This document shows positions 3,215 to 25,276 of a stretch of DNA of 34,661 nt, piece after piece (the stretch's first letter is position 1; each line of letters opens with the position of its first letter). This stretch comes from a virus (Duplodnaviria > Heunggongvirae > Uroviricota > Caudoviricetes): the IMG/VR virus record IMGVR_UViG_2531839482_000004; one strand, given 5' to 3'. The notes beneath the pieces were generated by a model that saw only the letters and a list, made by a program, of their open reading frames with translations, did not search any database and was not told the DNA's origin. Made by a program: the position numbers and the translations under genes.

Positions 3215-4297
3215 TTAGAACTGGTAAACCATACCTACAGCAACGATATCATCGGTAGCAACGCCAGATGCTTTCGTGAAATCGCTCTTATCAATCAGGT
3301 TGATTTTGTAGTCAACAAAAGTGGACATATTTTTGTTGAAGTAATAGGTTGCACCTACATCAACATATTCAACCAGGTCCTGATCACCCCAAACACCCAA
3401 GTCTTTTCCTTTAGAATGCAGGTAAGCAACGGATGGACGCAGGCCGAAGTCGAACTGATATTGTGCAACAGCTTCGAAGTTTTGTGCTTTGTTGGCAATA
3501 TGGTTATTACCAAAAACAGTCATGTTCTGGGTTTCAGAATAGGTGGTGGCCAGATAGATGTTGTTCGCATCATATTTCAGACCAGCTGCCCATACTTCAG
3601 CATTTTGACCAGAAGCATTCAGACCGTTGTTACCGTAGATAACCTGATTATTAGTGCGATCAGATTTAGCATAGGTTGCACCCACGCCGAATCCTTCATA
3701 CTCATAAGTAGTTGAGAAACCGAAACCATCGCCATTAGCTTCAGTTACTTCATTTCGGTCATTTTTGCCCTGATACTGAGCTGCAAAGTTCAGGCCATCA
3801 ACCAGACCAAAGAAGTCGTTGTTACGATAAGTTGCAACACCTGTGGTGCGACCAGTCATGAATACATCTGTTTGGGTCCAGGTATCGCCACCGAATTCTG
3901 GCAGAACGTCAGTCCACGCACCGATGTCGTATGCTACACCGTAGTTACGGCCGTAATCGATTGAGCCGTAGTCACCGAATTTCAGGCCTGCAAATGCAAG
4001 ACGGGTTTTGTCTTTGGAGGAACCTTGAGATTCAGCGCGGTTGCCTTTGAATTCATATTCCCACTGACCGAAACCAGTCAGTTGATCGTTGATTTGGGTT
4101 TCACCTTTGAAGCCAAGACGGGCATAAGTAGTATCACCATCATCTGCATCATTAGAGGAGAAGTAGTGCTTAGCATTAACTTTCCCGTACAGATCCAGCT
4201 TGTTACTGTCTTTATTATAAATTTCAGCTGCCTGAGCAGACATCGCCATCAGTACTGATGCAGCTACAGCAGAAATTGCCACTGTTAATTTTTTCAT
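3215..4297 (-). CDS. nmpC: outer membrane porin, OmpC/NmpC family (intact)
   Basis: 360-aa ORF with signal peptide [23 protein letters not shown], porin motifs and C-terminal ...VGMVYQF; opposite strand to the phage late genes, as for nmpC in DLP12. Confidence 0.9.

Positions 4298-7846: not shown

Positions 7847-7872
<26 letters not shown>
7327..7872 (+). CDS. nu1: terminase small subunit Nu1
   Basis: 181-aa translation matches recalled lambda gpNu1 except for one or two substitutions. Confidence 0.95.
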
Positions 7873-11553
<3,681 letters not shown>

Positions 11554-13235: not shown

Positions 13236-13257
13236 GGCCGCCTGTGCGGCTTTTTTT
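13236..13257 (+). terminator. stem-loop plus T-tract between D and E
   Basis: gccgcctgtgcggc followed by ttttttt; weak terminator or attenuator-like structure. Confidence 0.35.
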
Positions 13258-13270
13258 ACGGGATTTTTTT

Positions 13271-13546
13271 ATGTCGATGTACACAACCGCCCAGCTGCTG
13301 GCGGCAAATGAGCAGAAATTTAAGTTTGATCCGCTGTTTCTGCGTCTCTTTTTCCGTGAGAGCTATCCCTTCACCACGGAGAAAGTCTATCTCTCACAAA
13401 TTCCTGGACTGGTAAACATGGCGCTGTACGTTTCGCCAATTGTTTCCGGTGAGGTTATCCGTTCCCGTGGCGGCTCCACCTCTGAATTTACGCCGGGTTA
13501 TGTCAAGCCGAAGCACTTAGCATGGCTTTCTGAGGCTTTCGTGTAG
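13271..13546 (+). pseudogene. E: major capsid protein gpE, N-terminal fragment (codons 1-82) interrupted by island insertion
   Basis: MSMYTTAQLLAANEQKFKFDPLFLRLFFRESYPF...TPGYVKPKH matches lambda gpE 1-82, then reads into island DNA (LAWLSEAFV*) and stops at 13546. Confidence 0.92.
13506..13515 (+). repeat. attL core AGCCGAAGCA (left island junction inside E)
   Basis: Identical 10-mer occurs at 24486-24495 at the other junction; sequence outside the pair is contiguous lambda E. Confidence 0.75.
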
Positions 13547-13678
13547 TTGCTGGTTTTTACACTTAATCTTTTGATAATAAAGAATAAGTTTATCTGGCGC
13601 TTTCACTGAATTTTCCTCGTTATCTGTGTGTTGCAATCATCTCTGTATTGCAGCTTGTATTGCTTTTTGGGGCTAAAA

Positions 13679-14914
13679 ATGGCTGGCGAGAACAAACTGA
13701 GCGACAAAGCGCTTAAAGGATATCTGGGGAAACCCAGAGAAAAGCAGATCACCATTGCTGATGGAAAGGGGCTTTCTATTCGTGTGAGTACTAAAGGGGC
13801 TGTGAGCTTTGTTTTCTTCTACAGGTTAGCAGGTGGCCGGGCTGCTCCGGTCTGGCTAACGTTGGGTAAATATCCTGATATGTCACTCAAACAGGCAAGG
13901 GAAAAGCGCGACGAGTGCCGTGGTTGGTTGGCTGACAAACGTGATCCGCGTATCCAGATTAAGATTCAGGCTGAAGAACGCTTAAAGCCGGTCACAGTGG
14001 AGGATGCACTAAATTACTGGTATGAAAATTACTGTAAGGTGCGTCGTAAAACTCATGCTGTAACGCTTGGCAGATTTCGAAAGCATATCTTTCCCTATAT
14101 CGGTCATTTGCCCGTAAATGACACTCACCTATATGAATGGCTGGACTGTTTTGACCGAATTAAACGTAATGCACCAGTTATGGCGGCGTATGTTTTTTCT
14201 GACACTAAATTAGCTCTTCGTTTTTGTCGGGTACGCCAGTACGCGACGTGTGATGCTTTAAAGGATTTGCGCATGAGTGATGTGGGGCAGATTGCAGGTA
14301 AGCGGGATCGGGTTCTGGATGAAGCCGAACTGGGCCAGCTCTGGAAGGCAATTTTTGTCGAGCCTGATTTAAAACTAATGTCTGAATACACGCGAAAAAT
14401 GTTTGTGCTTTGTACAGTATTTGGATGTCGAATGAGTGAAGCCCGATTATCTGAATGGAGTGAATGGGATCTCGAAAGTTGGGTTTGGACTGTACCAAAA
14501 GATCACTCAAAAACTGGTGTTGAAATCGTCAGACCAGTACCTGAAATTCTACGACAGTGGGTAACGGATGTTCACGAAGAGACAAAACATACTGGTTATG
14601 TGCTGGGAAGTCTGCGAATTAGAGAAAGCGTAAGCAAGATTGGGGGGAAAATCGGTAAACGTTTGGGCCATGAAAAACAATGGTCACTACACGACCTTAG
14701 AAGAACGCTATCTACTCATCTAAGTGATCTCGGTGTTGAATTTTATGTAGTAGAACAACTGTTAGGCCATGCGCTACCTGGCGTGGCAGGGGTTTACAAC
14801 AGGAGTACGTTTATGGCTAAAAAACTGGATGCTCTGGAACTCTGGACTACATATCTCAATAGCATCGCAGCTGCTGATTCAAAAGTGACAATCCTCAAAC
14901 AAAAGGCTGGTTAA
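13679..14914 (+). CDS. int: tyrosine integrase, P4-type with N-terminal arm-binding domain
   Basis: N-terminus LSDKALKGYLGKPREKQITIADGKGLSIRVS...LGKYPDMSLKQAREKRDE (DUF4102-like); C-terminal catalytic region with HDLRRT and LGH...GVY motifs; first gene inside the left junction. Confidence 0.88.
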   Translation: MAGENKLSDKALKGYLGKPREKQITIADGKGLSIRVSTKGAVSFVFFYRLAGGRAAPVWLTLGKYPDMSLKQAREKRDECRGWLADKRDPRIQIKIQAEERLKPVTVEDALNYWYENYCKVRRKTHAVTLGRFRKHIFPYIGHLPVNDTHLYEWLDCFDRIKRNAPVMAAYVFSDTKLALRFCRVRQYATCDALKDLRMSDVGQIAGKRDRVLDEAELGQLWKAIFVEPDLKLMSEYTRKMFVLCTVFGCRMSEARLSEWSEWDLESWVWTVPKDHSKTGVEIVRPVPEILRQWVTDVHEETKHTGYVLGSLRIRESVSKIGGKIGKRLGHEKQWSLHDLRRTLSTHLSDLGVEFYVVEQLLGHALPGVAGVYNRSTFMAKKLDALELWTTYLNSIAAADSKVTILKQKAG

Positions 14915-14915
14915 C

Positions 14916-15143
14916 ATGAAAAAAATGGCAATTGTTGATAAAAAGGGTCTGGAGTACATTCCTAACATTGACCGAATGATCCGTGAGAAAGAATGTCGGG
15001 AGCTAACCACTCTTGCGAACAGCACACGCTGGAAGCTGGAGAAGGAAGGAAAATTTCCTAAGCGGATCAAGATTGGCGCTACTGCGGTAGCTTATCGTCT
15101 CTCCGAAGTTCAGGCATGGATTAAGGGAGAATGGAGTAATTAA
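14916..15143 (+). CDS. alpA: AlpA-family HTH regulator / excisionase-like protein
   Basis: 75 aa; ATG overlaps int stop; ...IKIGATAVAYRLSEVQAWIKGE resembles the AlpA HTH pattern; position immediately after int as in E. coli PICIs and P4-like elements. Confidence 0.75.
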   Translation: MKKMAIVDKKGLEYIPNIDRMIREKECRELTTLANSTRWKLEKEGKFPKRIKIGATAVAYRLSEVQAWIKGEWSN

Positions 15144-15161
15144 ATAATAAGGTATTTCGAT

Positions 15162-15983
15162 ATGACAATGTGTGTTATTTGGAAGTCAGTTGATGGAACT
15201 ATTTATGCCGCCACAGATTCTCGACTGAGCTTTGAAGAAAAAAAGTTAGATCGTTGCGTTAAAATATCCCGAATCACATGTCTTTTACATGAGCCTAGTG
15301 ATGCAGTAGATACAAGTAAGATACTTGTTGATAAGCGTGAGATTGCTACATTATTCTGTGGAGGCTTTACAAATGCCTATATCATCAAGGAGAGCCTTAC
15401 TGAGATTTTAAATAAAATAGTTCTCATGAGGGAATACTCCGGCGTGCCCTTTTCGGAAATTATAGATATAGCGTTTTCCATTTATGAAGATACATCAAGA
15501 GATATGTTTGCATCATTAATGGACCAACGATTTGGATGTGTTTTTTACATGATAAGTTACTGCCCTGTATATAAGGAAATGCAAGCATTTAAATTTGAAT
15601 TCAAAATAAATGAAAACGGTATTAACTATTATAAATCTAAACTTTTTGAAGATCGTAACTATGAGGTTAATGGAAGTGGGGTGAGGTACTTGGAACAAAA
15701 TCATCGTATTGAAGATCTAGTTAAAGAAGCTTATCAGAAGAATAAATACACACCACTTCTAGATATACTTGAGTCCGTAATTAATGATGACGACTGTGAC
15801 TCTGTTGGAGGTGCAATGCAATACATTTCATGTAATAAAGATAGACTAAAATTGTGTTGTCATATGTTATTTGAAGAAAATAATCATAAGTATATGAAAG
15901 CTGGGGTGGACTTAAATGAACTCAATGAGAAGTTTATACCTTCTGGTTTGTTTTTTGAGACAGATGCAATCATCAAAAGATAA
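15162..15983 (+). CDS. hypothetical protein, AT-rich cargo gene (possible Ntn-hydrolase-like fold)
   Basis: 273-aa ORF with markedly lower GC than flanks; N-terminus MTMCVIWKSVDGTIYAATDSRL loosely resembles the proteasome/HslV-type N-terminal nucleophile region, with Cys where HslV has Thr. Similarity is weak and unverified. Confidence 0.5.
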   Translation: MTMCVIWKSVDGTIYAATDSRLSFEEKKLDRCVKISRITCLLHEPSDAVDTSKILVDKREIATLFCGGFTNAYIIKESLTEILNKIVLMREYSGVPFSEIIDIAFSIYEDTSRDMFASLMDQRFGCVFYMISYCPVYKEMQAFKFEFKINENGINYYKSKLFEDRNYEVNGSGVRYLEQNHRIEDLVKEAYQKNKYTPLLDILESVINDDDCDSVGGAMQYISCNKDRLKLCCHMLFEENNHKYMKAGVDLNELNEKFIPSGLFFETDAIIKR

Positions 15984-16292
15984 ACGATAACCGACTTTGA
16001 TTGTGATAATTTTATCAAGATTATGATGAATGCTGCAGTATATCTAACATGCTGCAGTTAACTCAATTTGTATTATCGCTAATATTTTTAATAACAAGGA
16101 TGTTTATTGCTTTTTTATTTGAGAGTGAACGTCTAACCATTGTTGTTCTTAGTTCTCATGGAGAGATTGGAGCTTAAAATACGCAATGTTTTGAAATCAG
16201 CGCAACTATATTCCGTAATTGTTCTTTGTCGTTCTTGCGTGGCACGGTGATACACCTCTCATGTCGGTTGTTTTTTTGAACGCAGAAACATA

Positions 16293-16320
16293 AAACAAAG
16301 GCGACCGGGATGGTCGCCAG
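16293..16320 (-). terminator. rho-independent terminator of the leftward island operon
   Basis: ggcgaccgggatggtcgcc hairpin; on the minus strand it is followed by tttgtttt, downstream of the 16387 stop. Confidence 0.5.
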
Positions 16321-16386
16321 TGGCATAACACTAAAATTGAGCGTATTCAGAATACCAAGTGTCGGCTGGTGGACAATGGAATCAGT

Positions 16387-16743
16387 TCAATATTTAGGTG
16401 GTTCAACAAGAGCGTTTATCATTGCTCTCAAATTATCGCGAACACTTATCCAAGTCTGTTCTGCTCGTTCTAACTCATTAGTGTACAGCTTTAATGTTTT
16501 ATCTATGCCATATGTGGCTATTAAATTTATAGCTTCTTGTAACTTTTCGGGATTATTCCTTCTTGGGGGAGTGAATATACCGCGGATTTTTCCGGTAATT
16601 AAAGCTTTACGGTGTCTACATAGAATACCTTTACTTCCTGCTGGACAATTACAAGTCATGATTAGCGAGCCAGAATCGTTTGATACAGTGACTATGTATA
16701 CATCCAAACTACTGCTACTTGTTGCGAAGAATTCGTATTTCAT
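16387..16743 (-). CDS. SWIM-type zinc-finger protein, hypothetical
   Basis: 118-aa ORF with CxC-x7-CxH motif (TCNCPAGSKGILCRH); AAGGAG 8 nt upstream of ATG 16743; preferred over the overlapping plus-strand ORF 16310-16750. Confidence 0.6.
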   Translation of the reverse strand: MKYEFFATSSSSLDVYIVTVSNDSGSLIMTCNCPAGSKGILCRHRKALITGKIRGIFTPPRRNNPEKLQEAINLIATYGIDKTLKLYTNELERAEQTWISVRDNLRAMINALVEPPKY

Positions 16744-16770
16744 GTGTTAGCTCCTTGACTTCAATTATTC

Positions 16771-16965
16771 TTATCCTTTTGGTTCAATACCGCGCCGTAG
16801 CAGCTCTTTGCGCCCTAACTCTTTAAGCCAGTTGGCAAGGCTTACCCCATCGTTACTGGCTTCGTTATCAAACTGCTCCTTCAATTCAGGAACTATGCGC
16901 ATATGGAACGGTGGGGCCTTTCCTGTGCCTTTTTGTTTTTTATCGCGCTTAATAACCGTTGACAT
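16771..16965 (-). CDS. small ribbon-helix-helix-like DNA-binding protein (candidate island regulator)
   Basis: 64 aa; ...FHMRIVPELKEQFDNEASNDGVSLANWLKELGRKEL has a beta-strand/helix/helix pattern like Arc/MetJ-type proteins; start codon abuts a palindromic operator-like site. Confidence 0.55.
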   Translation of the reverse strand: MSTVIKRDKKQKGTGKAPPFHMRIVPELKEQFDNEASNDGVSLANWLKELGRKELLRRGIEPKG

Positions 16966-17026
16966 GTGTACACCTATAGCGTTATGTTTTTATTCGATAG
17001 GTGTACACCTTAACATGTGTGCATTT
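16959..17026. promoter_or_regulatory. divergent control region with inverted repeats (operator candidate)
   Basis: GTGTACACCTAT (16966-16977) and its exact reverse complement ATAGGTGTACAC (16997-17008), 19-bp spacer; related ACATGTGT boxes at 16962 and 17014; TTGACA at 16959-16964. Confidence 0.5.
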
Positions 17027-17300
17027 AAAAACGCAACGCCCCGCAGTGCGGGAACACATGCAGGGCGTCTAACCACCAACGATAGCAACAGTATCGAGGT
17101 AGCTATGAGAAATCATCCCACACACCCGCAAGGGCGGGACTCGCACAACCTGAATAAATTCACTTGGCGCTTTATCGCCCTGAGTGCGGCTAAACCGCGC
17201 ATGCTTACCATCGTGGTCACCAGCGAGCAGGAAGACCGCCAGCAATCCCCAACTGGCTGCGTGATGATATTCGCCGCCCGTATTCGTCAGGAGGTGTGCC

Positions 17301-17525
17301 ATGAATGATCTTTATTTTAAAGTGCTGACACATGCTGAAAACGCGCTCGTTTGTGGCAAAAATATGCGAGAAATCTTATCAACCTGGCTTGATGGGACAA
17401 CAAATGCGGAACACGATGAACGGGATGCTAATTTAGCTGGAGCGTTAATTACGTTACTTGATCCTGTCATCAAAGAGCTGGATGAAGCTATAAAAATACA
17501 CGACCAGAGCTATACCGGAGAATAA
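17301..17525 (+). CDS. hypothetical protein
   Basis: 74-aa ORF, AGGAGG 8 nt upstream of ATG; first gene of the rightward operon leading to the primase. Confidence 0.6.
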   Translation: MNDLYFKVLTHAENALVCGKNMREILSTWLDGTTNAEHDERDANLAGALITLLDPVIKELDEAIKIHDQSYTGE

Positions 17526-17528
17526 AAA

Positions 17529-17816
17529 ATGAAAAATAAATTTTCTGGCTTTATTGCCAGCGGTCAAACTCATTCAAAAATCAGCCTTGGGGATATTTTC
17601 AAAGACAGCTATGGCTATCGGGTAAAGATTATTTCGGTTGATGATCGTCGTGTCTCTTATTTGCGTGATGGTTATGATTTTGAATGTGTTATGCCGCGTC
17701 AGCAGTTCGAAAGAGATTTCATTCTGGTAAAAAATTGCAAGACAGATAATCAGAGGCGTGCCGCAGGCTATATCCGTAAAATTCGGGCAATGTTAGTTGC
17801 CGGAGGTAACAAATGA
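17529..17816 (+). CDS. hypothetical protein
   Basis: 95-aa ORF, GGAGA upstream; tightly coupled to the primase gene (ATGA overlap). Confidence 0.6.
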   Translation: MKNKFSGFIASGQTHSKISLGDIFKDSYGYRVKIISVDDRRVSYLRDGYDFECVMPRQQFERDFILVKNCKTDNQRRAAGYIRKIRAMLVAGGNK

Positions 17817-19633
17817 AACGTGCTCCGAACTTAAAATACCAACCGCGCGACAAAATGACGGAAGTCATCATTTTTGCTGGCAGTGATGCCTGGAGCCATG
17901 CAAAAGAATGGAATGAATGGGCAGGTAAGCATATTGCAGCAGATGATACACCACCAGTCATTCTGGGTACGGAACAACTGGAAAACCTGGATGATATGCA
18001 AATTATCGATGAAGGCCGTCATTATGTGCGTGTTTATCGTGCCGGAAAGATTGCAGAGAAAAGTCTGACGAAGGTTGCGACATTACTTGCTATTGCAGGC
18101 GTAAAGGAAGCACGTTGTTACCGTAGCTTTGTTGATCGAGAGCCTGAAGACTGGACTCCGCGCCTTGTCGGCCTAAAAGCTGAAGCGGAGCATGGGGAAA
18201 GTCTGGTGATTGAACTGCCAGTGAAGAAGGCAGAGCGCAAAAATGACGAGCGTGCTTCATCTTTGGCGTTGAATCAGATGGGGGCCAGCCAGCGCGGTGA
18301 AGTTCTCCTTGCACATTACGGCGGTGAACTGGCAATCAATGCCGACTCTGACACCGTTCATCATTACAACGGCGTTGTATGGGAGCCGGTTCAGGATAAA
18401 GAGTTACAGCGTGCTATGGCGCAGATTTTCATTGATGCGGAGATCAGCTATTCGCAGAACGCTATTAAATCGGCGGTAGATACCATGAAGTTAAGTTTGC
18501 CTGTAATGGGGAATACAGCCCGTAACCTGATTGGATTCAGTAACGGGGTATTTGATACCAGAACTGGTAATTTTCGGGAGCATAACAAAAACGACTGGTT
18601 GTTAATTGCCAGTGAATTACCTTTCAGCCCACCAGCAGAGGGGGAAACGCTGGCAACACATGCGCCGAATTTCTGGAAGTGGTTGCGCCGTTCGGTGGCT
18701 GAGAATGACCGCAAGGCAGATCGCGTACTGGCGGCATTATTCATGGTGCTGGCGAACCGGTACGACTGGCAGTTATTCATTGAGGTAACAGGGCCGGGGG
18801 GAAGTGGTAAAAGTGTGATGGCGGAGATTTGCACCATGCTGGCGGGTAAGGCTAATACAGTATCAGCAAGCATGAAGGCGCTGGAAGATGCAAGGGAACG
18901 TGCGTTAGTGGTTGGCTTTTCGCTGATTATCATGCCGGATATGACCCGCTACGCTGGTGATGGGGCAGGGATTAAGGCCATTACAGGCGGTGACAAGGTG
19001 GCAATTGACCCGAAACACAAAGCCCCCTATTCAACGCGTATTCCGGCAGTAGTGCTGGCGGTTAACAATAACGCCATGTCATTCAGTGACCGCAGCGGGG
19101 GGATCTCACGTCGTCGGGTGATATTCAATTTTTCGGAAGTTGTACCGGAGAACGAACGCGATTCGATGCTGGCGGAAAAAATAGAAGGTGAGCTGGCGGT
19201 AGTGATTCGTCATCTGCTTACAAGGTTTGCTGATCAGGACGAAGCCAGACGCCTGTTATATGAGCAGCAGAAATCTGAAGAAGCACTGGCGATAAAGCGA
19301 GAGGGGGATTCGCTGGTGGACTTCTGCGGTTATCTCATGGCATCGGTAATGTGTGATGGCCTGTTAGTGGGTAATGCTGAAATTGTGCCATTCAGCCCAC
19401 GCAGGTATCTCTATCATGCCTATCTGGCTTATATGAGGGCACATGGGTTTGGTAAACCTGTAACACTGACGCGCTTCGGTAAAGATATGCCGGGGGCAAT
19501 GGCGGAATATGGCAGGGGGTATATGAAACGGAAAACGAAGCACGGTTTGCGTTCAAACGTGACACTGACGGAGGAATCAGAAGACTGGATGCCATCATGT
19601 GTATCGGTCACTAATGACGATAGCAAAAATTAA
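17813..19633 (+). CDS. primase/helicase-type replication protein (P4/PICI pri-rep family, D5-like NTPase)
   Basis: 606 aa; Walker A GPGGSGKS; overall architecture like P4-family primase C-terminal/helicase proteins; GGAGG RBS. Confidence 0.8.
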   Translation: MKRAPNLKYQPRDKMTEVIIFAGSDAWSHAKEWNEWAGKHIAADDTPPVILGTEQLENLDDMQIIDEGRHYVRVYRAGKIAEKSLTKVATLLAIAGVKEARCYRSFVDREPEDWTPRLVGLKAEAEHGESLVIELPVKKAERKNDERASSLALNQMGASQRGEVLLAHYGGELAINADSDTVHHYNGVVWEPVQDKELQRAMAQIFIDAEISYSQNAIKSAVDTMKLSLPVMGNTARNLIGFSNGVFDTRTGNFREHNKNDWLLIASELPFSPPAEGETLATHAPNFWKWLRRSVAENDRKADRVLAALFMVLANRYDWQLFIEVTGPGGSGKSVMAEICTMLAGKANTVSASMKALEDARERALVVGFSLIIMPDMTRYAGDGAGIKAITGGDKVAIDPKHKAPYSTRIPAVVLAVNNNAMSFSDRSGGISRRRVIFNFSEVVPENERDSMLAEKIEGELAVVIRHLLTRFADQDEARRLLYEQQKSEEALAIKREGDSLVDFCGYLMASVMCDGLLVGNAEIVPFSPRRYLYHAYLAYMRAHGFGKPVTLTRFGKDMPGAMAEYGRGYMKRKTKHGLRSNVTLTEESEDWMPSCVSVTNDDSKN

Positions 19634-19644
19634 ACTTATGGAAT

Positions 19645-19800
19645 AACTGTTCACCAAACTATTCACCGTTCACCTTTTTGATTATTTATTGAGCTTCAAG
19701 GGTGAACAGTGGTGAACAGTTGGTGAATAGTTTTTGTGAAACTGTTCACCCATTAACATTATGAATTAAAAGAGAAAATATCAAAAGGTGAACAGGTGAA
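19645..19800. repeat. iteron cluster, candidate island origin of replication
   Basis: About nine copies of GGTGAACAG / CTGTTCACC (and GGTGAAT variants) in both orientations around an AT-rich core (19756-19786), immediately downstream of the primase gene. Confidence 0.75.
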
Positions 19801-19846
19801 GGGTTAAAACGCAAAAATTTTAATTTACTGCTGTGAGATAAAGCCT

Positions 19847-20092
19847 ATGACAGCGAAGCACACAAAAAAATCACAATCGCACGCCCTTGATTTGACGGAA
19901 CACTGGTTAAGGGTGTCGATAAAAATCATCGACCGCAACGCCGGGGAAGGATACGCGAAAGCACATCCCGAACTGATTAGCGCATTCATGACAACGGCGG
20001 CTGCAAACTTTGCCACTCTGACCGAACGGGAGATTGCTGAAGCGGAGGAAGTGACAACAATCAATATTAAGTCCGGAGAGCAGGCAGCATGA
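19847..20092 (+). CDS. hypothetical protein
   Basis: 81-aa ORF between the origin and the ssb-like gene; no family recognised. Confidence 0.5.
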   Translation: MTAKHTKKSQSHALDLTEHWLRVSIKIIDRNAGEGYAKAHPELISAFMTTAAANFATLTEREIAEAEEVTTINIKSGEQAA

Positions 20093-20538
20093 CGGCGCAA
20101 ATATCAGTTTACGGGCGGTTGGTGGACGACCCGCAGACAAAACAGACCAGCAAGGGCACCCCCATGACGCTGGCGCGTATGGCGGTATCACTGCCCTGCA
20201 GTCAGTCGGATGACGGTCAGGCGACGATGTGGTTATCTGTCCTGGCGTTTGGCAGACAAGCCGACGCGCTGGCAAAGCATCACAAAGGCGAACTCCTGAG
20301 CGTGGCGGGTAATATGCAGGTGAGCCAGTGGACTGGACAGAACGGTGAAACGCGGCAGGGCTGGCAGGTTATCGCAGACAGCGTAATCAGTGCGCGAACG
20401 GTGCGACCGGGCGGCAAAAAAGGTCAACAGGGTCAGGCTACTGACGCACTGAACAGAGCAAAACAACAGGTAGATCAGCAAGGAAGCCATCCACCAGTGG
20501 GAGATAATGAGCAATGGGGAGATGATATTCCGTTTTAA
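20089..20538 (+). CDS. ssb: single-stranded DNA-binding protein (SSB-like)
   Basis: 149 aa; OB-fold-like N-terminus, Gly/Gln-rich linker, C-terminal acidic tail ...WGDDIPF as in SSB proteins. Confidence 0.75.
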   Translation: MTAQISVYGRLVDDPQTKQTSKGTPMTLARMAVSLPCSQSDDGQATMWLSVLAFGRQADALAKHHKGELLSVAGNMQVSQWTGQNGETRQGWQVIADSVISARTVRPGGKKGQQGQATDALNRAKQQVDQQGSHPPVGDNEQWGDDIPF

Positions 20539-20755
20539 ATATTGCCAATAAAAAAGGCCGGAAAAAAATAAATTTTCCGGCATGCTACATAAATCCCGAC
20601 CAAAGGGAGTGAAGATATTAACACTAATTATCCGCGCTGAAGTTGTTATCCCAAAACTTTATACAACATTGCACTCGGTTGCATGTATTCGCATGACAAA
20701 TATCGGTGATAGCATATATCCACAATTATTTTTAATGAATGCAAAGAGGATGCGT

Positions 20756-21796
20756 ATGGTTGATTTATATTCGCCTACCCAGCTTGTACAGGTGGTTAAT
20801 GCTGTAGATGTACAAAAACAACTAAATGCGTTGTTTACCAGTTTGTTTTTTACTCGCTCGGTAATGTTTGAATCGCGCGATATTATTCTTGATACAATCG
20901 ACGATCCAAATATCCCAATTGCAGCGTTTTGTTCTCCTATGGTGGGTAGTAAAGTTTCACGTGACGAAGGGTACGAATCAAAAACAATTCGTCCAGGCTA
21001 TATGAAGCCGAAAAGCAGCATTGATCCAAATAAGTTAGCTGTGCGCCCTGCTGGTGTATCACCTGAGCAATACAATGCTTTTGGAGCGCGTAATATTAAA
21101 GTTAAACAGGCGATTGTAAATCAGGCTAAATCTATTCGTGCACGTATTGAATGGCTTGCCGTTCAGGCAATCACAACGGGGAAAAATATCATTGAGGGCG
21201 ATGGTATTGAACGTTATGAGCTGGACTGGAATATTAAACCACAAAATATCATCACTCAGTCTGGCGGTGCTGAGTGGTCAGGTAAGGATAAAGAAACTTT
21301 TGATCCAAATGATGATATTGAGAGCTACGCAGAATTTAGTGAGGGCGTCACTAATATCATCATTATGGGCGGTAATGTATGGAAGAAATACCGTTCATTC
21401 AGAGCGATAAAAGAGGCTCTGGATACCCGTCGTGGTTCTAATTCCGAACTGGAAACGGCCCTTAAAGACCTTGGTGATTCGGTGAGTTTTAAAGGGTATA
21501 TGGGCGATGTTGCGATTGTTGTATACAGCGGGCGTTATACCGACGAGGACGGAACTGAAAAACATTTCCTTGATCCTGATTTGATGGTGCTTGGCAATAC
21601 GGCTCTTCAGGGGATTGTCGCCTATGGCGGTATTCAGGATCCGGAGCTAATCCGAATGGGGCTGACTAAAGCCGAACTTGCACCGAAAAACTATATTGTG
21701 CCTGGTGATCCGGCTATTGAATATGTGCAGACACATTCAGCACCACAGCCAATACCGGCCCGCATCAATCGTTTTGTTACCGTTCGCATTGGCTAA
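20756..21796 (+). CDS. island-encoded major capsid protein, divergent paralog of lambda gpE
   Basis: 346 aa; shares RPGYMKPK, NIITQSGGAEWSGKDKETFDPNDDIESYA, ALDTRRGSNSELETALKDLG, AIVVYSG, MVLGNT with helper gpE but is diverged throughout; AGAGGA RBS 6 nt before ATG 20756. Confidence 0.88.
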   Translation: MVDLYSPTQLVQVVNAVDVQKQLNALFTSLFFTRSVMFESRDIILDTIDDPNIPIAAFCSPMVGSKVSRDEGYESKTIRPGYMKPKSSIDPNKLAVRPAGVSPEQYNAFGARNIKVKQAIVNQAKSIRARIEWLAVQAITTGKNIIEGDGIERYELDWNIKPQNIITQSGGAEWSGKDKETFDPNDDIESYAEFSEGVTNIIIMGGNVWKKYRSFRAIKEALDTRRGSNSELETALKDLGDSVSFKGYMGDVAIVVYSGRYTDEDGTEKHFLDPDLMVLGNTALQGIVAYGGIQDPELIRMGLTKAELAPKNYIVPGDPAIEYVQTHSAPQPIPARINRFVTVRIG

Positions 21797-21805
21797 GGGG
21801 GAGCA

Positions 21806-22147
21806 ATGGCTACTCATTACACTGAACTCATGGCTGGCACTGAAGCACTGGTGACTACGCTGGGGATATTTTCAGCTAATAAAGGGGTAATTCCTGCATT
21901 TACGCCACTGATGCAGGAAGATGCAACAGGTGCACTGGTGGTATGGGATGGTTCGAGCGTAGGTAAAGCGGTTTATGTTTCCGCTGTACAAATCGACACC
22001 GCGAAAAAAACACAGGCTCAGGTCTATAAGACAGGTGTCTTAAATGTTGATGCTCTGAACTGGCCTGAGTCTGTAAAAGAACTGTCAGTAAAGATTGCAG
22101 CGTTTGTTGGCTCAGGTATTTCTGTTCAGCCGCTGGCTCGTGTGTAA
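21806..22147 (+). CDS. island-encoded decoration protein, divergent paralog of lambda gpD
   Basis: 113 aa; shares TPLM, LVVWDG, YKTGV, WPE, AAFVGSGISV with gpD; lies downstream of the capsid gene (order E-like then D-like, opposite to lambda). Confidence 0.75.
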   Translation: MATHYTELMAGTEALVTTLGIFSANKGVIPAFTPLMQEDATGALVVWDGSSVGKAVYVSAVQIDTAKKTQAQVYKTGVLNVDALNWPESVKELSVKIAAFVGSGISVQPLARV

Positions 22148-22158
22148 AGGGGGATACA

Positions 22159-22542
22159 ATGCAGAATGATTACAATGACCTTAAGCCAATTGCCGAAATG
22201 ATGTACCCGAATCCAGCTGTAGAGGAATTAAAAGCTATCGCTGACAAAATGTGTTTAAGCGAGCGCCTTGTTGATATGAATCAGGTGATGGAAATTACAA
22301 CCCTGAGTCGGCGTACACTGCTAAACCTTGAGGCTAGTGGAGAGTTCCCGGAGCGTGTGCAGGTTACGGAAGGGCGTAAGGCCTGGTATTTAAGTGAAGT
22401 GATCGACTGGATAAATAATATTCCTCGCGCTTCTGAATATTGCCGCGTACCTGTCCCAAAAAAGCCAGATGCGGCGCTATGCCTCAAGATTGAGCGTGTA
22501 CGCCGCAATGCACGGGATGGTCGCTATAAGCTGATTGGTTGA
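22159..22542 (+). CDS. AlpA/MerR-like HTH protein with N- and C-terminal extensions
   Basis: 127 aa; core MEITTLSRRTLLNLEASGEFPERVQVTEGRKAWYLSEVIDWI fits the AlpA-type HTH pattern. Confidence 0.6.
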   Translation: MQNDYNDLKPIAEMMYPNPAVEELKAIADKMCLSERLVDMNQVMEITTLSRRTLLNLEASGEFPERVQVTEGRKAWYLSEVIDWINNIPRASEYCRVPVPKKPDAALCLKIERVRRNARDGRYKLIG

Positions 22543-22565
22543 TGAAATTAGGGCCCGCTCTGGCT

Positions 22566-22787
22566 GGCGGGTCCTTTCCGGCGATCTGACAGGCTACGGG
22601 GCGTCAGGCGCGCAGTTTTTCGCTATTTGTGAAAATTTTCCTGTTTAAGGCGTTTCCGTTCTTCTTCGCCGTAACTTAATGTTTTTATTAAAAACACCCC
22701 CTAAAAAGAAAGGAAACGACAGGTGCTAAAAACAGGCTTTTTGGCCTCTGTCGTTTCCTTTCTCTGGTTTTGTCCGTGGAATGAACA
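22566..22787 (+). other. island cos site (cosQ and cosB conserved, cosN divergent)
   Basis: Aligns base-for-base with helper cos 7107-7326, but the cosN position reads GGGCGTCAGGCG (helper GGGCGGCGACCT), with further changes just downstream. Confidence 0.8.
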
Positions 22788-22853
22788 ATGGAAGCCAACA
22801 AAAAGCAGCTGGCTGACATTTTCGGTGCGAGTATCCGTACCATTCAGAACTAG
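22788..22853 (+). pseudogene. Nu1-paralog N-terminal segment ending in an in-frame amber codon (codon 22)
   Basis: MEANKKQLADIFGASIRTIQN then TAG where helper Nu1 has TGG (Trp). Confidence 0.7.
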
Positions 22854-22865
22854 CAGGAGCAGGGA

Positions 22866-23339
22866 ATGCCCGTTCTGCGAGGCGGTGGCAAGGGTAATGA
22901 GGTGCTTTATGACTCTGCCGCCGTCATAAAATGGTATGCCGAAAGGGATGCTGAAATTGAGAACGAAAAGCTGCGCCGGGAGGTTGAAGAACTGCGGCAG
23001 GCCAGCGAGGCAGATCTCCTGCCAGGGACTATTGAGTATGAACGCCATCGACTTACGCGTGCGCAGGCCGACGCACAGGAACTGAAGAATGCCAGCGAAA
23101 CAGGTGAGGTAATTGACACTGCATTTGCGACTTATGCTTTGTCGAAATTAACTGGGGAAGTTGGAGCAATCATTGATAGTCTTCCACTTGCGATCTGTCG
23201 ACAGTTTCCTGGCATGGAAAAACGGTATCAGGACTTCATTAAGATGGAGGTCAGTAAAGCATTTATTCGAGCTTACCAGATCTCAGATAACATTCCAGAT
23301 ATGGCTGAAAGGTATATCAAGGATAATCAGCGAAGTTAA
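22866..23339 (+). CDS. N-terminally truncated terminase small-subunit paralog (Nu1 residues 27-end; divergent C-terminal domain)
   Basis: Starts at the codon equivalent to Nu1 Met27, where a GAA->GAG change creates a GGAG Shine-Dalgarno 6 nt upstream; first ~80 aa near-identical to Nu1, last ~75 aa replaced by AT-rich divergent sequence. Confidence 0.7.
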   Translation: MPVLRGGGKGNEVLYDSAAVIKWYAERDAEIENEKLRREVEELRQASEADLLPGTIEYERHRLTRAQADAQELKNASETGEVIDTAFATYALSKLTGEVGAIIDSLPLAICRQFPGMEKRYQDFIKMEVSKAFIRAYQISDNIPDMAERYIKDNQRS

Positions 23340-23445
23340 AACAAATGAAACCATAGGTAGGAAGAGTGCTTAGGTGGTTCTTTGTTGCTTAAAAGTCGCC
23401 AGTAAAACTGGCGATAGATTTTATTTGTCAAAAGCATTTGACCTT

Positions 23446-24351
23446 TTAAGGTAGTGGTACTATGGATATTTTTCTGTCGTTCCCAAATGAACTTTTAAAT
23501 AATTTCGCTCTTGGATACATCTTAACTAGTGATGCGACTTCATCGAACTCGCTGGCATCAAAAAGAGGACCAAGTATTACAGATTTTAACTCAAAAGGGT
23601 GAAATTTTAAGTCGCTATATTGACCAGTGCTATTTGGCCTAGCGTAGGTTGAAATTCTCCACTCTCTTTCATATGCCCATTCTTCTGTTTTTATGAATAT
23701 TATCTCATTATTGATATATTCAATTGACTTATTGTCTGGCATGAAAAGCAACTCGGCCATCCCTTCAGCAGTGTGAGTTAGAGGCATTTCATCTGTGTAT
23801 TTCATAGGTTTGGCTATTAACCAAGCGCTATCCAGAAAGTCTACACAATCAAATTCGATAACTATACCTTTATATTTATCGGCATAGTGATTCCACATAG
23901 GAGTGATTATAGGGCTCTCAGATAAACACAAAATCCTTCTGTTATTAAGCATTCCTCGCCAGACATCTTTCATTTCTTGTATTGCCGCAGGAGCGCCAAT
24001 CCCAACTGGTGGAATGTTTACCATTTCTTGAAATCTTTCAATTAATCCTGCGGGTATGCCTAAAGGAAATGACTTTTGGAAATCACTTAGCATTGTTCTA
24101 ATTCTAGGGTTTAAATTTTGTATGTCTTCTCTGGGGGTAATCAACTCCGCTATTAACTTGCGGGCTAAAGCTTTGCCAATATTAATTTCGTTAATACCAG
24201 GCATAACTTCTCTTGGAACATCAAAAGGGTCATTAAATAGGACCGGAGAACTCCATCTAAGGCTGCATGAATCAAGAACAATTTTCGCGGTATTCAACGA
24301 CATATACTTATAAAATGTTGAGCGTTCATGCATTCTGTTGGGTGAGCGCAT
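23446..24351 (-). CDS. hypothetical protein, DUF2971-like, AT-rich cargo gene
   Basis: 301 aa; N-terminal FYKYMSL...LRWSSPVLFNDPFD and WAYEREWRI motifs as recalled for DUF2971 proteins; low GC; GAGGA RBS; last gene before the right junction. Confidence 0.55.
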   Translation of the reverse strand: MRSPNRMHERSTFYKYMSLNTAKIVLDSCSLRWSSPVLFNDPFDVPREVMPGINEINIGKALARKLIAELITPREDIQNLNPRIRTMLSDFQKSFPLGIPAGLIERFQEMVNIPPVGIGAPAAIQEMKDVWRGMLNNRRILCLSESPIITPMWNHYADKYKGIVIEFDCVDFLDSAWLIAKPMKYTDEMPLTHTAEGMAELLFMPDNKSIEYINNEIIFIKTEEWAYEREWRISTYARPNSTGQYSDLKFHPFELKSVILGPLFDASEFDEVASLVKMYPRAKLFKSSFGNDRKISIVPLP

Positions 24352-24485
24352 AGATTCCTCTTGTTAAATGAGTGATGGTTTTCATCCATGTATTGCACGT
24401 TGTATTGCATTCAAGGATTTTCCATTTCAATTCTATAGCTAAAACGTAATCAAATCATTCACATCCTTTCATATTTGACTCATGT

Positions 24486-24495
24486 AGCCGAAGCA
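24486..24495 (+). repeat. attR core AGCCGAAGCA (right island junction)
   Basis: Identical to 13506-13515; E coding sequence resumes in frame immediately afterwards. Confidence 0.75.
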
Positions 24496-25276
24496 TGAGG
24501 TGAATCCGCAGATGACCCTGCGTCGCCTGCCGGATGAAGATCCGCAGAATCTGGCGGACCCGGCTTACCGCCGCCGTCGCATCATCCTGCAGAACATGCG
24601 TGACGAAGAGCTGGCCATTGCTCAGGTCGAAGAGATGCAGGCAGTTTCTGCCGTGCTCAAGGGCAAATACACCATGACCGGTGAAGCCTTCGATCCGGTT
24701 GAGGTGGATATGGGCCGCAGTGCGGCGAACAACATCACGCAGTCCGGCGGCACGGAGTGGAGCAAGCGTGACAAGTCCACGTATGACCCGACCGACGATA
24801 TCGAAGCCTACGCGCTGAACGCCAGCGGCGTGGTGAATATCATCGTGTTTGATCCGAAAGGCTGGGCGCTGTTCCGTTCCTTCAAAGCCGTCAAGGAGAA
24901 GCTGGATACCCGTCGCGGCTCTAATTCCGAGCTGGAGACAGCGGTAAAAGACCTGGGCGAAGCGGTGTCCTATAAGGGGATGTATGGCGATACGGCGATC
25001 GTCGTGTATTCCGGACAGTACGTGGAAAACGACGTCAAAAAGAACTTCCTGCCGGACAACACGATGGTGCTGGGGAACACTCAGGCACGCGGTCTGCGCA
25101 CCTATGGCTGCATTCAGGATGCGGACGCACAGCGCGAAGGTATTAACGCCTCTGCCCGCTACCCGAAAAACTGGGTGACCACCGGCGATCCGGCGCGTGA
25201 GTTCACCATGATTCAGTCAGCACCGCTGATGCTGCTGGCTGATCCTGATGCGTTCGTGTCCGTACAACTGGCGTAA
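24486..25276 (+). pseudogene. E: major capsid protein gpE, C-terminal fragment (codons ~80-341)
   Basis: ...KHEVNPQMTLRRLPDEDPQNLADPAYRRRRIILQNMRDEE... to ...FVSVQLA matches lambda gpE; preceded in frame by a TAG from island DNA. Confidence 0.92.

Follow-up and report, generated by a model that had tools for sequence, protein, structure and literature searches.

The 273-codon open reading frame (ORF) at 15162-15983 on the plus strand of IMG/VR virus record IMGVR_UViG_2531839482_000004, a 34,661-nucleotide stretch of viral (Caudoviricetes) DNA that we call the window, encodes a protein placed firmly by structure prediction in the proteasome-beta fold and predicted, just as firmly from the alignment of its family, to carry a complete and canonically spaced set of Thr1 active-site residues. 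The gene forms a horizontally acquired single-gene cassette, an assignment of which we are equally confident, directly behind the integrase (int) and alpA genes of a phage-inducible chromosomal island (PICI). We suggest that its product is an accessory threonine protease in the conflict between phages and mobile elements, most likely serving anti-phage defence. The role is read from the location of the gene, and we put this reading forward tentatively.

The cargo ORF is a genuine gene. It runs from ATG to stop, begins 19 nt past the stop codon of alpA (15143), which itself lies downstream of the integrase gene, and is preceded by a recognisable ribosome-binding site (Table 1). Because stop codons should turn up about once in ~12 codons at such a base composition, an open frame of 273 codons would hardly arise by chance (p ~7e-11), and full-length homologues with 40-99% identity are found in Klebsiella, Pectobacterium, Serratia, Enterobacter, Providencia and Rahnella. 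An earlier note on this DNA, made from the sequence alone, had described a compositionally foreign cargo gene directly behind int-alpA, quoting an N-terminus that is exactly that of the ORF. The description holds: the two preceding genes match Pfam Phage_integrase and Phage_AlpA, and the GC content of the ORF is 33.6% (28.8% at third codon positions, GC3), compared with 45.1% for the rest of the island, 45.3% for int, 44.3% for alpA and 57% for the flanking prophage. Across the whole sequence, only 7/677 intervals of the same length (822 bp) are as AT-rich.

Provided with an alignment of 15 sequences, AlphaFold modelled the protein (as a monomer, like all structures predicted here) with a predicted local distance difference test (pLDDT) score of 76; with 147 sequences, pLDDT reached 94.1 and the predicted template modelling (pTM) score 0.91. 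A structure search had been proposed in the earlier note as a check. When the model from the smaller alignment was compared with the Protein Data Bank (PDB) by Foldseek, the best 50 matches were all 20S proteasome subunits. The next N-terminal nucleophile (Ntn) families, namely acid ceramidase, connectase, NAAA and penicillin acylase, had scores of 9.4 or less. The model shows the four-layer alpha-beta-beta-alpha Ntn fold and is matched better by proteasome subunits than by any of these other families.

In the numbering used for proteasome beta subunits, the catalytic residues are Thr1, Asp17 and Lys33 (PMC8665760), and counterparts of all three can be located in the cargo protein (Table 1). 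Conservation was counted over an alignment of 147 family members, spacing over the 137 members that were scored. Position 2 is occupied by Thr in 139/147 members (95%) and by Ser in a further 4/147 (3%). As Thr is residue 2 in 133/137 members, there appears to be no propeptide, and methionine aminopeptidase tolerates Thr as the second residue. Asp19, Ser20 and Arg21 are present in 144, 140 and 136 of the 147 members, respectively. When residues are numbered from Thr=1, this Asp falls at position 17 in 97/137 members and at position 18 in 36/137, the cargo protein being among the latter; the Lys has its modal position at 33 (87/137), and here the cargo protein sits with the majority.

Candidates for the supporting motifs of a proteasome-type active site can be traced further along the chain. 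In Gly-Ser-Gly, G171 is invariant, Ser or Thr occupies position 172 in 119/147 members and G173 is found in 130/147; in the model the motif lies where a strand ends and a helix (172-178) begins. In Ser-Val-Gly-Gly, Ser or Thr is found at position 214 in 108/147 members, V215 and G216 in 142/147 each and G217 in 146/147. The distance from Ser172 to this motif is 42 residues, compared with 40 in the T. acidophilum beta subunit. The equivalent of Asp166 is uncertain, the candidate D209 being present in 59% of members. Residues conserved in at least 90% of the family are M1, T2, D19, S20, R21, D30, G67, G132, C134, V215, G216, G217 and Q220. Profile comparisons agree with these assignments, with weak statistics throughout: in hhalign, M1-T2 falls opposite Met-Thr1 of E. 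coli HslV and FCGG opposite its FAGG, and a profile alignment pairs SDSR...K with the SDSR...K of a human chimeric beta-9/beta-1 chain. The hhalign comparisons, made against single HslV and T. acidophilum beta sequences (E 0.0016 to 0.2), are used as support only. Judged by its sequence, the protein would be an ordinary Thr1 enzyme without a propeptide, like E. coli HslV, and we infer that it is an active threonine protease.

The earlier note had also remarked on an HslV-like N-terminus, with Cys in place of Thr. The first half of that remark is borne out by the pairing of M1-T2 with HslV Met-Thr1 and by the spacing of Asp (17/18) and Lys (33). The second half is not: it is from Thr2 that this spacing is counted, and Thr2 is conserved in 139/147 members as opposed to 113/147 (77%) for Cys4. 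Might Met-Thr-Met nonetheless constitute a three-residue propeptide, the removal of which would expose Cys4 as the nucleophile? MTMC is invariant among the 15 closest sequences, Cys is the commonest residue at position 4, and Cys-Ntn hydrolases are known from other Ntn families (acid ceramidase, NAAA, C69 dipeptidase). However, 23% of the 147 members have Val, Ile, Ser, Leu, Ala, Gly or Thr at this position. Since Thr2 is 95% conserved and Cys4 is so often replaced, we take Thr2 to be the predicted nucleophile; the family alignment largely refutes the alternative, which we regard as very improbable.

Compared with 20S beta subunits, HslV, Anbu and BPH (MEROPS T1, PF00227), the cargo protein is divergent, with an identity of only 7-18%. 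Three extensions account for its greater length (273 aa versus about 175-205 aa in proteasome subunits): the S3-S4 hairpin has some 19 extra residues, the segment joining the oxyanion Gly to Gly-Ser-Gly some 23, and the C-terminus some 24, which include a helix modelled at 251-261. Cys134-Pro135 and Gln220 are further signatures that set the family apart from proteasomes. The hallmark of the family is the elongated hairpin. From Lys to Gly there are 33 residues in the cargo protein and 31-36 across the family, versus 14 (Lys33 to Gly47) in proteasomes. The strands of the hairpin are modelled at 35-43 and 55-67, and its tip (about residues 45-56) varies more among close relatives than any other segment and carries an indel. 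In connectase, an insertion at the S3-S4 site lies over the active site and dictates substrate specificity (PMC8665760); by analogy, the hairpin of the present family likely determines substrate or trigger specificity.

Orphan proteasome homologues have been collected before. Fuchs, Alva and Lupas (2021) listed 22 orphan prokaryotic families without informative genomic context, including GPH (representative WP_152342571.1), PMI-1 to PMI-6 (WP_179179973.1 for PMI-5), DPH, RPC and PPH, some of them phage-borne (PPH, AAH) (PMC8665760). Like these families, ours is divergent, retains Thr1/Asp17/Lys33/Gly47, lacks a propeptide, has insertions at S3/S4 and at the C-terminus and is partnerless; the C-terminal helix and the missing propeptide fit what the same authors call group II. 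Set beside the 22 families by description only, it may be one of them or a further one. It differs from them in having a specific context, namely a PICI cargo slot and defence islands.

Sequence libraries do not provide a family name. The ORF protein has no match in Pfam, PADLOC-DB v2 or, by phmmer, among PDB sequences at E up to 10; NCBIfam returns noise only, and the sole match in PHROGs is phrog_16034, of unknown function. The earlier note had been unable to assign a known family and had suggested PADLOC as one check: the former assessment stands for every sequence library searched, and the latter check found nothing. The family itself is sizeable. A HMMER search of 1.84 billion cluster representatives recovered 295 related clusters at 50% identity, 178 of them at E <=1e-10, nearly all 245-305 aa long, nearly all aligning from residue 1 and mostly metagenomic. 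Profiles built from the 15-sequence and 147-sequence alignments found no significant match among PDB sequences, the best biologically sensible one being the human chimeric beta-9/beta-1 proteasome chain (E 1.1). When members were scanned singly, the Pfam family matched by most of them was PF00227 Proteasome, weakly and in 3/147 cases (best E 0.007); the ORF protein itself does not match it at E up to 10. Membership is at the level of the superfamily (fold) and not of PF00227 as now defined.

The gene is rare. Its cassette occurs in 4/5426 complete E. coli genomes, always with at least 99.6% identity, and the gene in 1/72,556 plasmids, in 0/50,697 GenBank phage records and in six IMG/VR contigs, at least five of which bear a PICI. 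Given these counts of E. coli genomes, plasmids and phage records, we reject a housekeeping role: in contrast to housekeeping proteasomes, the family is a rare accessory gene of mobile elements.

The slot behind alpA behaves as an exchange hotspot. Sister islands are 96.5-99% identical to the window up to 15122-15141, that is, to the end of alpA, after which homology returns only at 16210, 16344, 17151 or 17811 (in one sister island, L019, no later match was found in the stretch compared). It is because homology stops at the end of alpA and resumes later that we delimit a cassette of ~15144-16343 with one gene. Of six sister islands sampled, one has a TIR protein in the slot (PADLOC PDC-S35, 7e-67; Pfam CAP12-PCTIR_TIR), one putAbiC on the reverse strand, two DUF2971 and two unrelated unknowns, confirming the variability among related islands that the earlier note had anticipated. 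In all, 179/5426 complete E. coli genomes have this int-alpA type, and 4 of these 179 have the cassette. An allele with only 39% identity lies right behind alpA on IMG/VR contigs L043 (3567-4391) and L044 (3231-4055), in islands with an integrase 90.5% and an AlpA 94.5% identical to the proteins of the window. Such a divergent allele beside integrase and AlpA proteins of 90-95% identity points to exchange of the cassette as opposed to divergence in place, and the presence of two very divergent alleles within one island lineage suggests that such exchange has been repeated.

Homologues also directly follow alpA in a Klebsiella variicola PICI and a Rahnella PICI. The K. variicola island (L004:5942-8000) lies in a prophage large-terminase gene. 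Its proteasome-like gene comes after a row of three AlpA-family genes and overlaps the next ORF, whose 179-aa product matches no family.

Immune systems at the 5' and 3' ends of PICIs have been reported (PMC11364771), and of eight random unknown genes taken from P4 hotspots, six protected against phages (PMC13586616). The cargo gene resembles the immune cargo of PICIs and P4-like satellites (Tai; PMC11364771, PMC13586616) in being a single foreign gene in a 5' satellite hotspot and in that the same position is filled by unrelated defence-type genes in sister elements.

Relatives of the gene elsewhere often keep similar company. Among 15 distinct contexts (a sample, not a survey), seven have defence-type neighbours: ThsB, restriction-modification, mad7, SspF-like, Bub, NACHT, HEPN-SNF2 and Ppl-like. 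Of the close relatives, the one in Serratia adjoins a 1474-aa NACHT protein (L008:1-4287), and the one on an Enterobacter IncFII plasmid is divergently oriented from a STAND ATPase (462 aa, nSTAND1/AAA_16, with a weak mad8 match; L010:5969-7357). In a Pectobacterium integrative and conjugative element (ICE), the relative shares the cargo with a Ppl-like protein, with an ArdC-type anti-restriction gene ~2.7 kb away. Distant members are found near ThsB-TIR, SLATT and QueC/TGT; near two DNA methylases with an HNH protein and a Multi_ubiq/ThiF/BubE operon; near type I restriction-modification, mad7 and an SspF-like protein; and near a HEPN-SNF2 helicase, a weak AbiU-like match and an integrase. 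The Providencia relative is situated at the tail-fibre end of a prophage, and one further member lies among small phage-like ORFs. Directly downstream of one distant member (P0057) on a metagenome contig is a gene (L020:8900-9574) whose product starts MTIAIAV...LVADG and has GGxIxY near residue 200; it may be a second, different proteasome-like paralogue, which would hint that some loci encode two subunits; the profile match has a non-significant E of 0.14.

The same company can be read in another way. The protease might serve counter-defence or competition between elements, degrading a protein of host immunity or of a competitor element and thereby aiding establishment of its carrier instead of shielding the cell from phage. 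The STAND/NACHT or other immune genes beside several members could then be targets and not partners, the family is found on mobile elements as different as PICIs, an IncFII plasmid, an ICE and a prophage end, and the Pectobacterium member has the ArdC-type gene in its vicinity. Against this, those sister-slot genes that can be classified in the islands sampled are defence-type (TIR, putAbiC, PDC-S31-like) and not known anti-defence genes; the plasmid member lies, by gene order, between traI and repA, outside the leading region; and members within chromosomal defence islands fit defence better. We consider counter-defence unlikely, while keeping it in view.

Anti-phage defence is favoured because of the company the gene keeps, the behaviour of its slot and the hit rate of 6/8 among unknown satellite-hotspot genes (PMC13586616). 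How might such a protein work? We envisage a cytoplasmic hydrolase of the proteasome family, MEROPS T1-like, from which methionine aminopeptidase would take off the initiator Met to expose Thr2 as the N-terminal nucleophile. Thr2 would be activated by Asp19, Arg21 and Lys34, the oxyanion hole would be provided by Gly67, and Gly-Ser-Gly 171-173 and Ser-Val-Gly-Gly 214-217 would support the active site as they do in 20S beta subunits and HslV. The Lys34-Gly67 hairpin, which exceeds that of proteasomes by ~19 residues, would be placed where connectase gates its active site. As swap-in PICI cargo, the gene would act as a single-gene anti-phage protease guarding the lysogen, and hence both the satellite and its helper prophage, by cleaving either a phage protein or, in the manner of abortive infection, a host protein. 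In this scheme Met removal, oligomeric assembly, the substrate and the anti-phage phenotype are what we infer. A more ambitious version, in which stand-alone proteasome-type Thr proteases make up a new class of single-gene anti-phage immunity on satellites, plasmids and ICEs, with the variable S3-S4 hairpin as sensor or specificity element, strikes us as conceivable and rather doubtful.

Several observations argue against defence by proteolysis as a satisfactory explanation. Unlike known PICI and P4-like immune cargo, the ORF protein is without similarity to any PADLOC model. The association with defence genes in the sampled neighbourhoods comes without a statistical null, two of the 15 contexts look like ordinary chromosome, and there is no conserved partner gene, the immediate neighbours in nine contexts being mutually unrelated. 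Our literature searches brought up neither a connection of proteasome homologues with phage defence nor a proteasome-type enzyme among defence effectors. The known proteases of the proteasome family act only as assemblies and frequently require an unfoldase, as HslV does; unlike HslV, the ORF has no unfoldase gene (HslU or AAA+) nearby. Nor does the gene have a promoter of its own that we could detect: no promoter-like site is predicted on the plus strand in 14700-15162, and site prediction yields nothing beyond chance for a terminator or promoter belonging to the ORF. It is probably co-transcribed with int-alpA, and expression may therefore follow AlpA and induction and not be constitutive, which a role in the life cycle of the satellite would also fit.

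That role would consist of interference with the helper: induced along with int-alpA, the protease would cleave a morphogenetic protein of the helper or the satellite (capsid, the scaffold/protease gpC or terminase) and so bias packaging towards the satellite. The gap of 19 nt behind alpA and the lack of a predicted promoter are as expected under this model, at least four PICI lineages have a homologue right behind alpA, and the island parasitises a lambdoid helper while possessing capsid, decoration and Nu1-type terminase genes of its own. However, with the cassette in only 4 of the 179 E. coli genomes that have this int-alpA type, and with unrelated genes in the slot otherwise, the cargo ORF is evidently dispensable for the life cycle. 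Members are moreover found where no helper is involved, on a plasmid, in an ICE and in chromosomal defence islands. We judge a life-cycle role to be quite unlikely.

A final set of objections concerns the chemistry. Neither Anbu nor BPH has a demonstrated proteolytic role, although both possess this fold and these catalytic residues, and connectase, with the same fold, is nevertheless a ligase (PMC8665760). The cargo protein might accordingly have the proteasome fold and not be a protease at all, being instead a connectase-like ligase or transpeptidase, an amidase acting on a small molecule or peptide tag, or a silent scaffold. Connectase has the Thr1 chemistry as well as the fold, it ligates proteins, and its specificity element is at the S3/S4 site (PMC8665760), the very site of the insertion that is the hallmark of our family; one member also lies ~6 kb from a ubiquitin-like Bub operon in the same island. 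To us a non-protease appears distinctly unlikely, and an accessory threonine protease, tentatively one of anti-phage defence, continues to be the preferred reading.

The gene is carried by an island that splits a lambda-like major capsid gene of its helper prophage (Table 1). Int, alpA and the cargo ORF are followed by two genes transcribed in the opposite direction, one for a SWIM protein and the other a small ORF. The island continues with DUF4222, a D5-type primase and SSB, and then with its own capsid E homologue, a gpD-like decoration gene, a helix-turn-helix gene, a Nu1-type small terminase and DUF2971 on the reverse strand. It is a helper-embedded PICI of the type 11capE, at site E:Phage_cap_E_80, which has been described as having a 10-bp block of identity at the insertion site (PMC10111431). 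The island resembles 11capE in its int-alpA genes, variable zone, replication zone with primase and SSB, late zone with a capsid E homologue, and size of ~11 kb. In 11capE the zone after alpA is described as mostly holding Bro-network proteins and immunity RNAs (PMC10111431), whereas in this island the zone opens with the proteasome-like gene. A search for C4/isrK immunity RNAs with Rfam found none at the gathering threshold and noise only at E up to 1. The earlier note had placed the gene in a position typical of PICIs and P4-like satellites. The PICI half of this comparison stands, but P4-like identity is rejected, as int, AlpA, D5-type primase and SSB inside a split gpE belong to the helper-embedded PICI type (PMC10111431). 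E. coli A37 matches the stretch 13500-17400 at 99.8% identity, and annotation shows this arrangement in A37 as well as in six further genomes.

Table 1. Features of the cargo gene and of the island that carries it (window coordinates; residue numbers refer to the ORF protein unless proteasomes are named).
Feature	Position	Strand	Description and basis
Variable cargo cassette	15144-16343	+	Cargo ORF alone plus 230-360 bp of AT-rich non-coding DNA; GC 34.3%
Ribosome-binding site AAGG	ahead of cargo ORF	+	Sequence read directly
Thr2 codon	15165-15167	+	Predicted nucleophile, residue 1 once the initiator Met is gone; family alignment, hhalign to HslV
Asp19-Ser20-Arg21	15216-15224	+	Counterpart of proteasome Asp17-x-Arg19; conservation, spacing, profile alignment
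Lys34	15261-15263	+	Counterpart of proteasome Lys33; invariant (147/147)
Elongated S3-S4 beta-hairpin, Lys34 to Gly67	15264-15359	+	Family hallmark; spacing, model, alignment
Gly67 in FCGG	15360-15362	+	Counterpart of oxyanion-hole Gly47; Gly in 146/147, FAGG of HslV in hhalign
Gly171-Ser172-Gly173	15672-15680	+	Putative counterpart of proteasome Gly128-Ser129-Gly130; motif, order and spacing, not superposed coordinates
Ser214-Val-Gly-Gly217	15801-15812	+	Likely counterpart of proteasome Ser169-Gly170; order and spacing
Island	about 13516-24485 (~11 kb)		Co-directional insertion in lambda-like major capsid gene E
attL core AGCCGAAGCA	13506-13515	.	Gene E interrupted after ...GYVKPKH
attR core AGCCGAAGCA	24486-24495	.	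Gene E resumes, EVNPQMTLRRL...
gpE N-terminal piece (truncated ORF)	13244-13546		
gpE C-terminal piece	24500-25276		
Tyrosine integrase	13628-14914	+	Pfam Arm-DNA-bind_3, Phage_integrase; RefSeq start ~13679 at near-identical locus
AlpA regulator/excisionase, 75 aa	14916-15143	+	Pfam Phage_AlpA 6e-15
SWIM zinc-finger protein (118 aa) and 64-aa ORF	16387-16965	-	SWIM protein with weak PADLOC PDC-S62 match (1e-4); convergent with cargo gene
Island's own capsid E homologue	within 20582-21796		
gpD-like decoration gene	21806-22147		
Nu1-type small terminase	22866-23339		
Second cargo gene, DUF2971 protein	23446-24351	-	3' island end; PADLOC PDC-S31 2.5e-32; Pfam DUF2971 1e-9; GC 37.7%

Some further observations concern the island and its host prophage. 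A strong terminator-like hairpin (16318-16300) ends the pair formed by the SWIM gene and the 64-aa ORF, a pair that is kept in some sister islands and replaced in others. DUF2971 proteins occur at both ends, at the 3' end of the island in the window and in the after-alpA slot of sister islands. In the prophage, the large terminase gene (7847-9772, plus strand) is intact in the window (641 aa) and annotated as frameshifted in E. coli A37 (L001:6347-8274), so that the A37 assembly is not the origin of the window. The AT-rich Q/lysis region contains a full-length general porin gene (3215-4297, minus strand; Pfam Porin_1, 3.6e-152), which is of the NmpC/Lc type and represents classic lambdoid cargo.

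The fold, the type of satellite and the logic of the hotspot were all known already; it is their combination that is new to the literature we searched. No Pfam, NCBIfam or PADLOC model exists for the family, which merits one. Dozens of families of orphan proteasome homologues are known from sequence alone, and this one has a sharp context, the cargo slot and defence islands, so that the function of orphan bacterial proteasome homologues can now be approached by cloning a single gene. Should it protect against phages, a Thr1 Ntn protease would be a new enzymatic class in bacterial immunity, one with no adjacent sensor or unfoldase partner, and this would be, as far as our searches show, the first immune function of the bacterial proteasome fold and the first physiological role for an orphan prokaryotic proteasome homologue. 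If it attacks host defences or helper proteins instead, it would be a new weapon of satellites.

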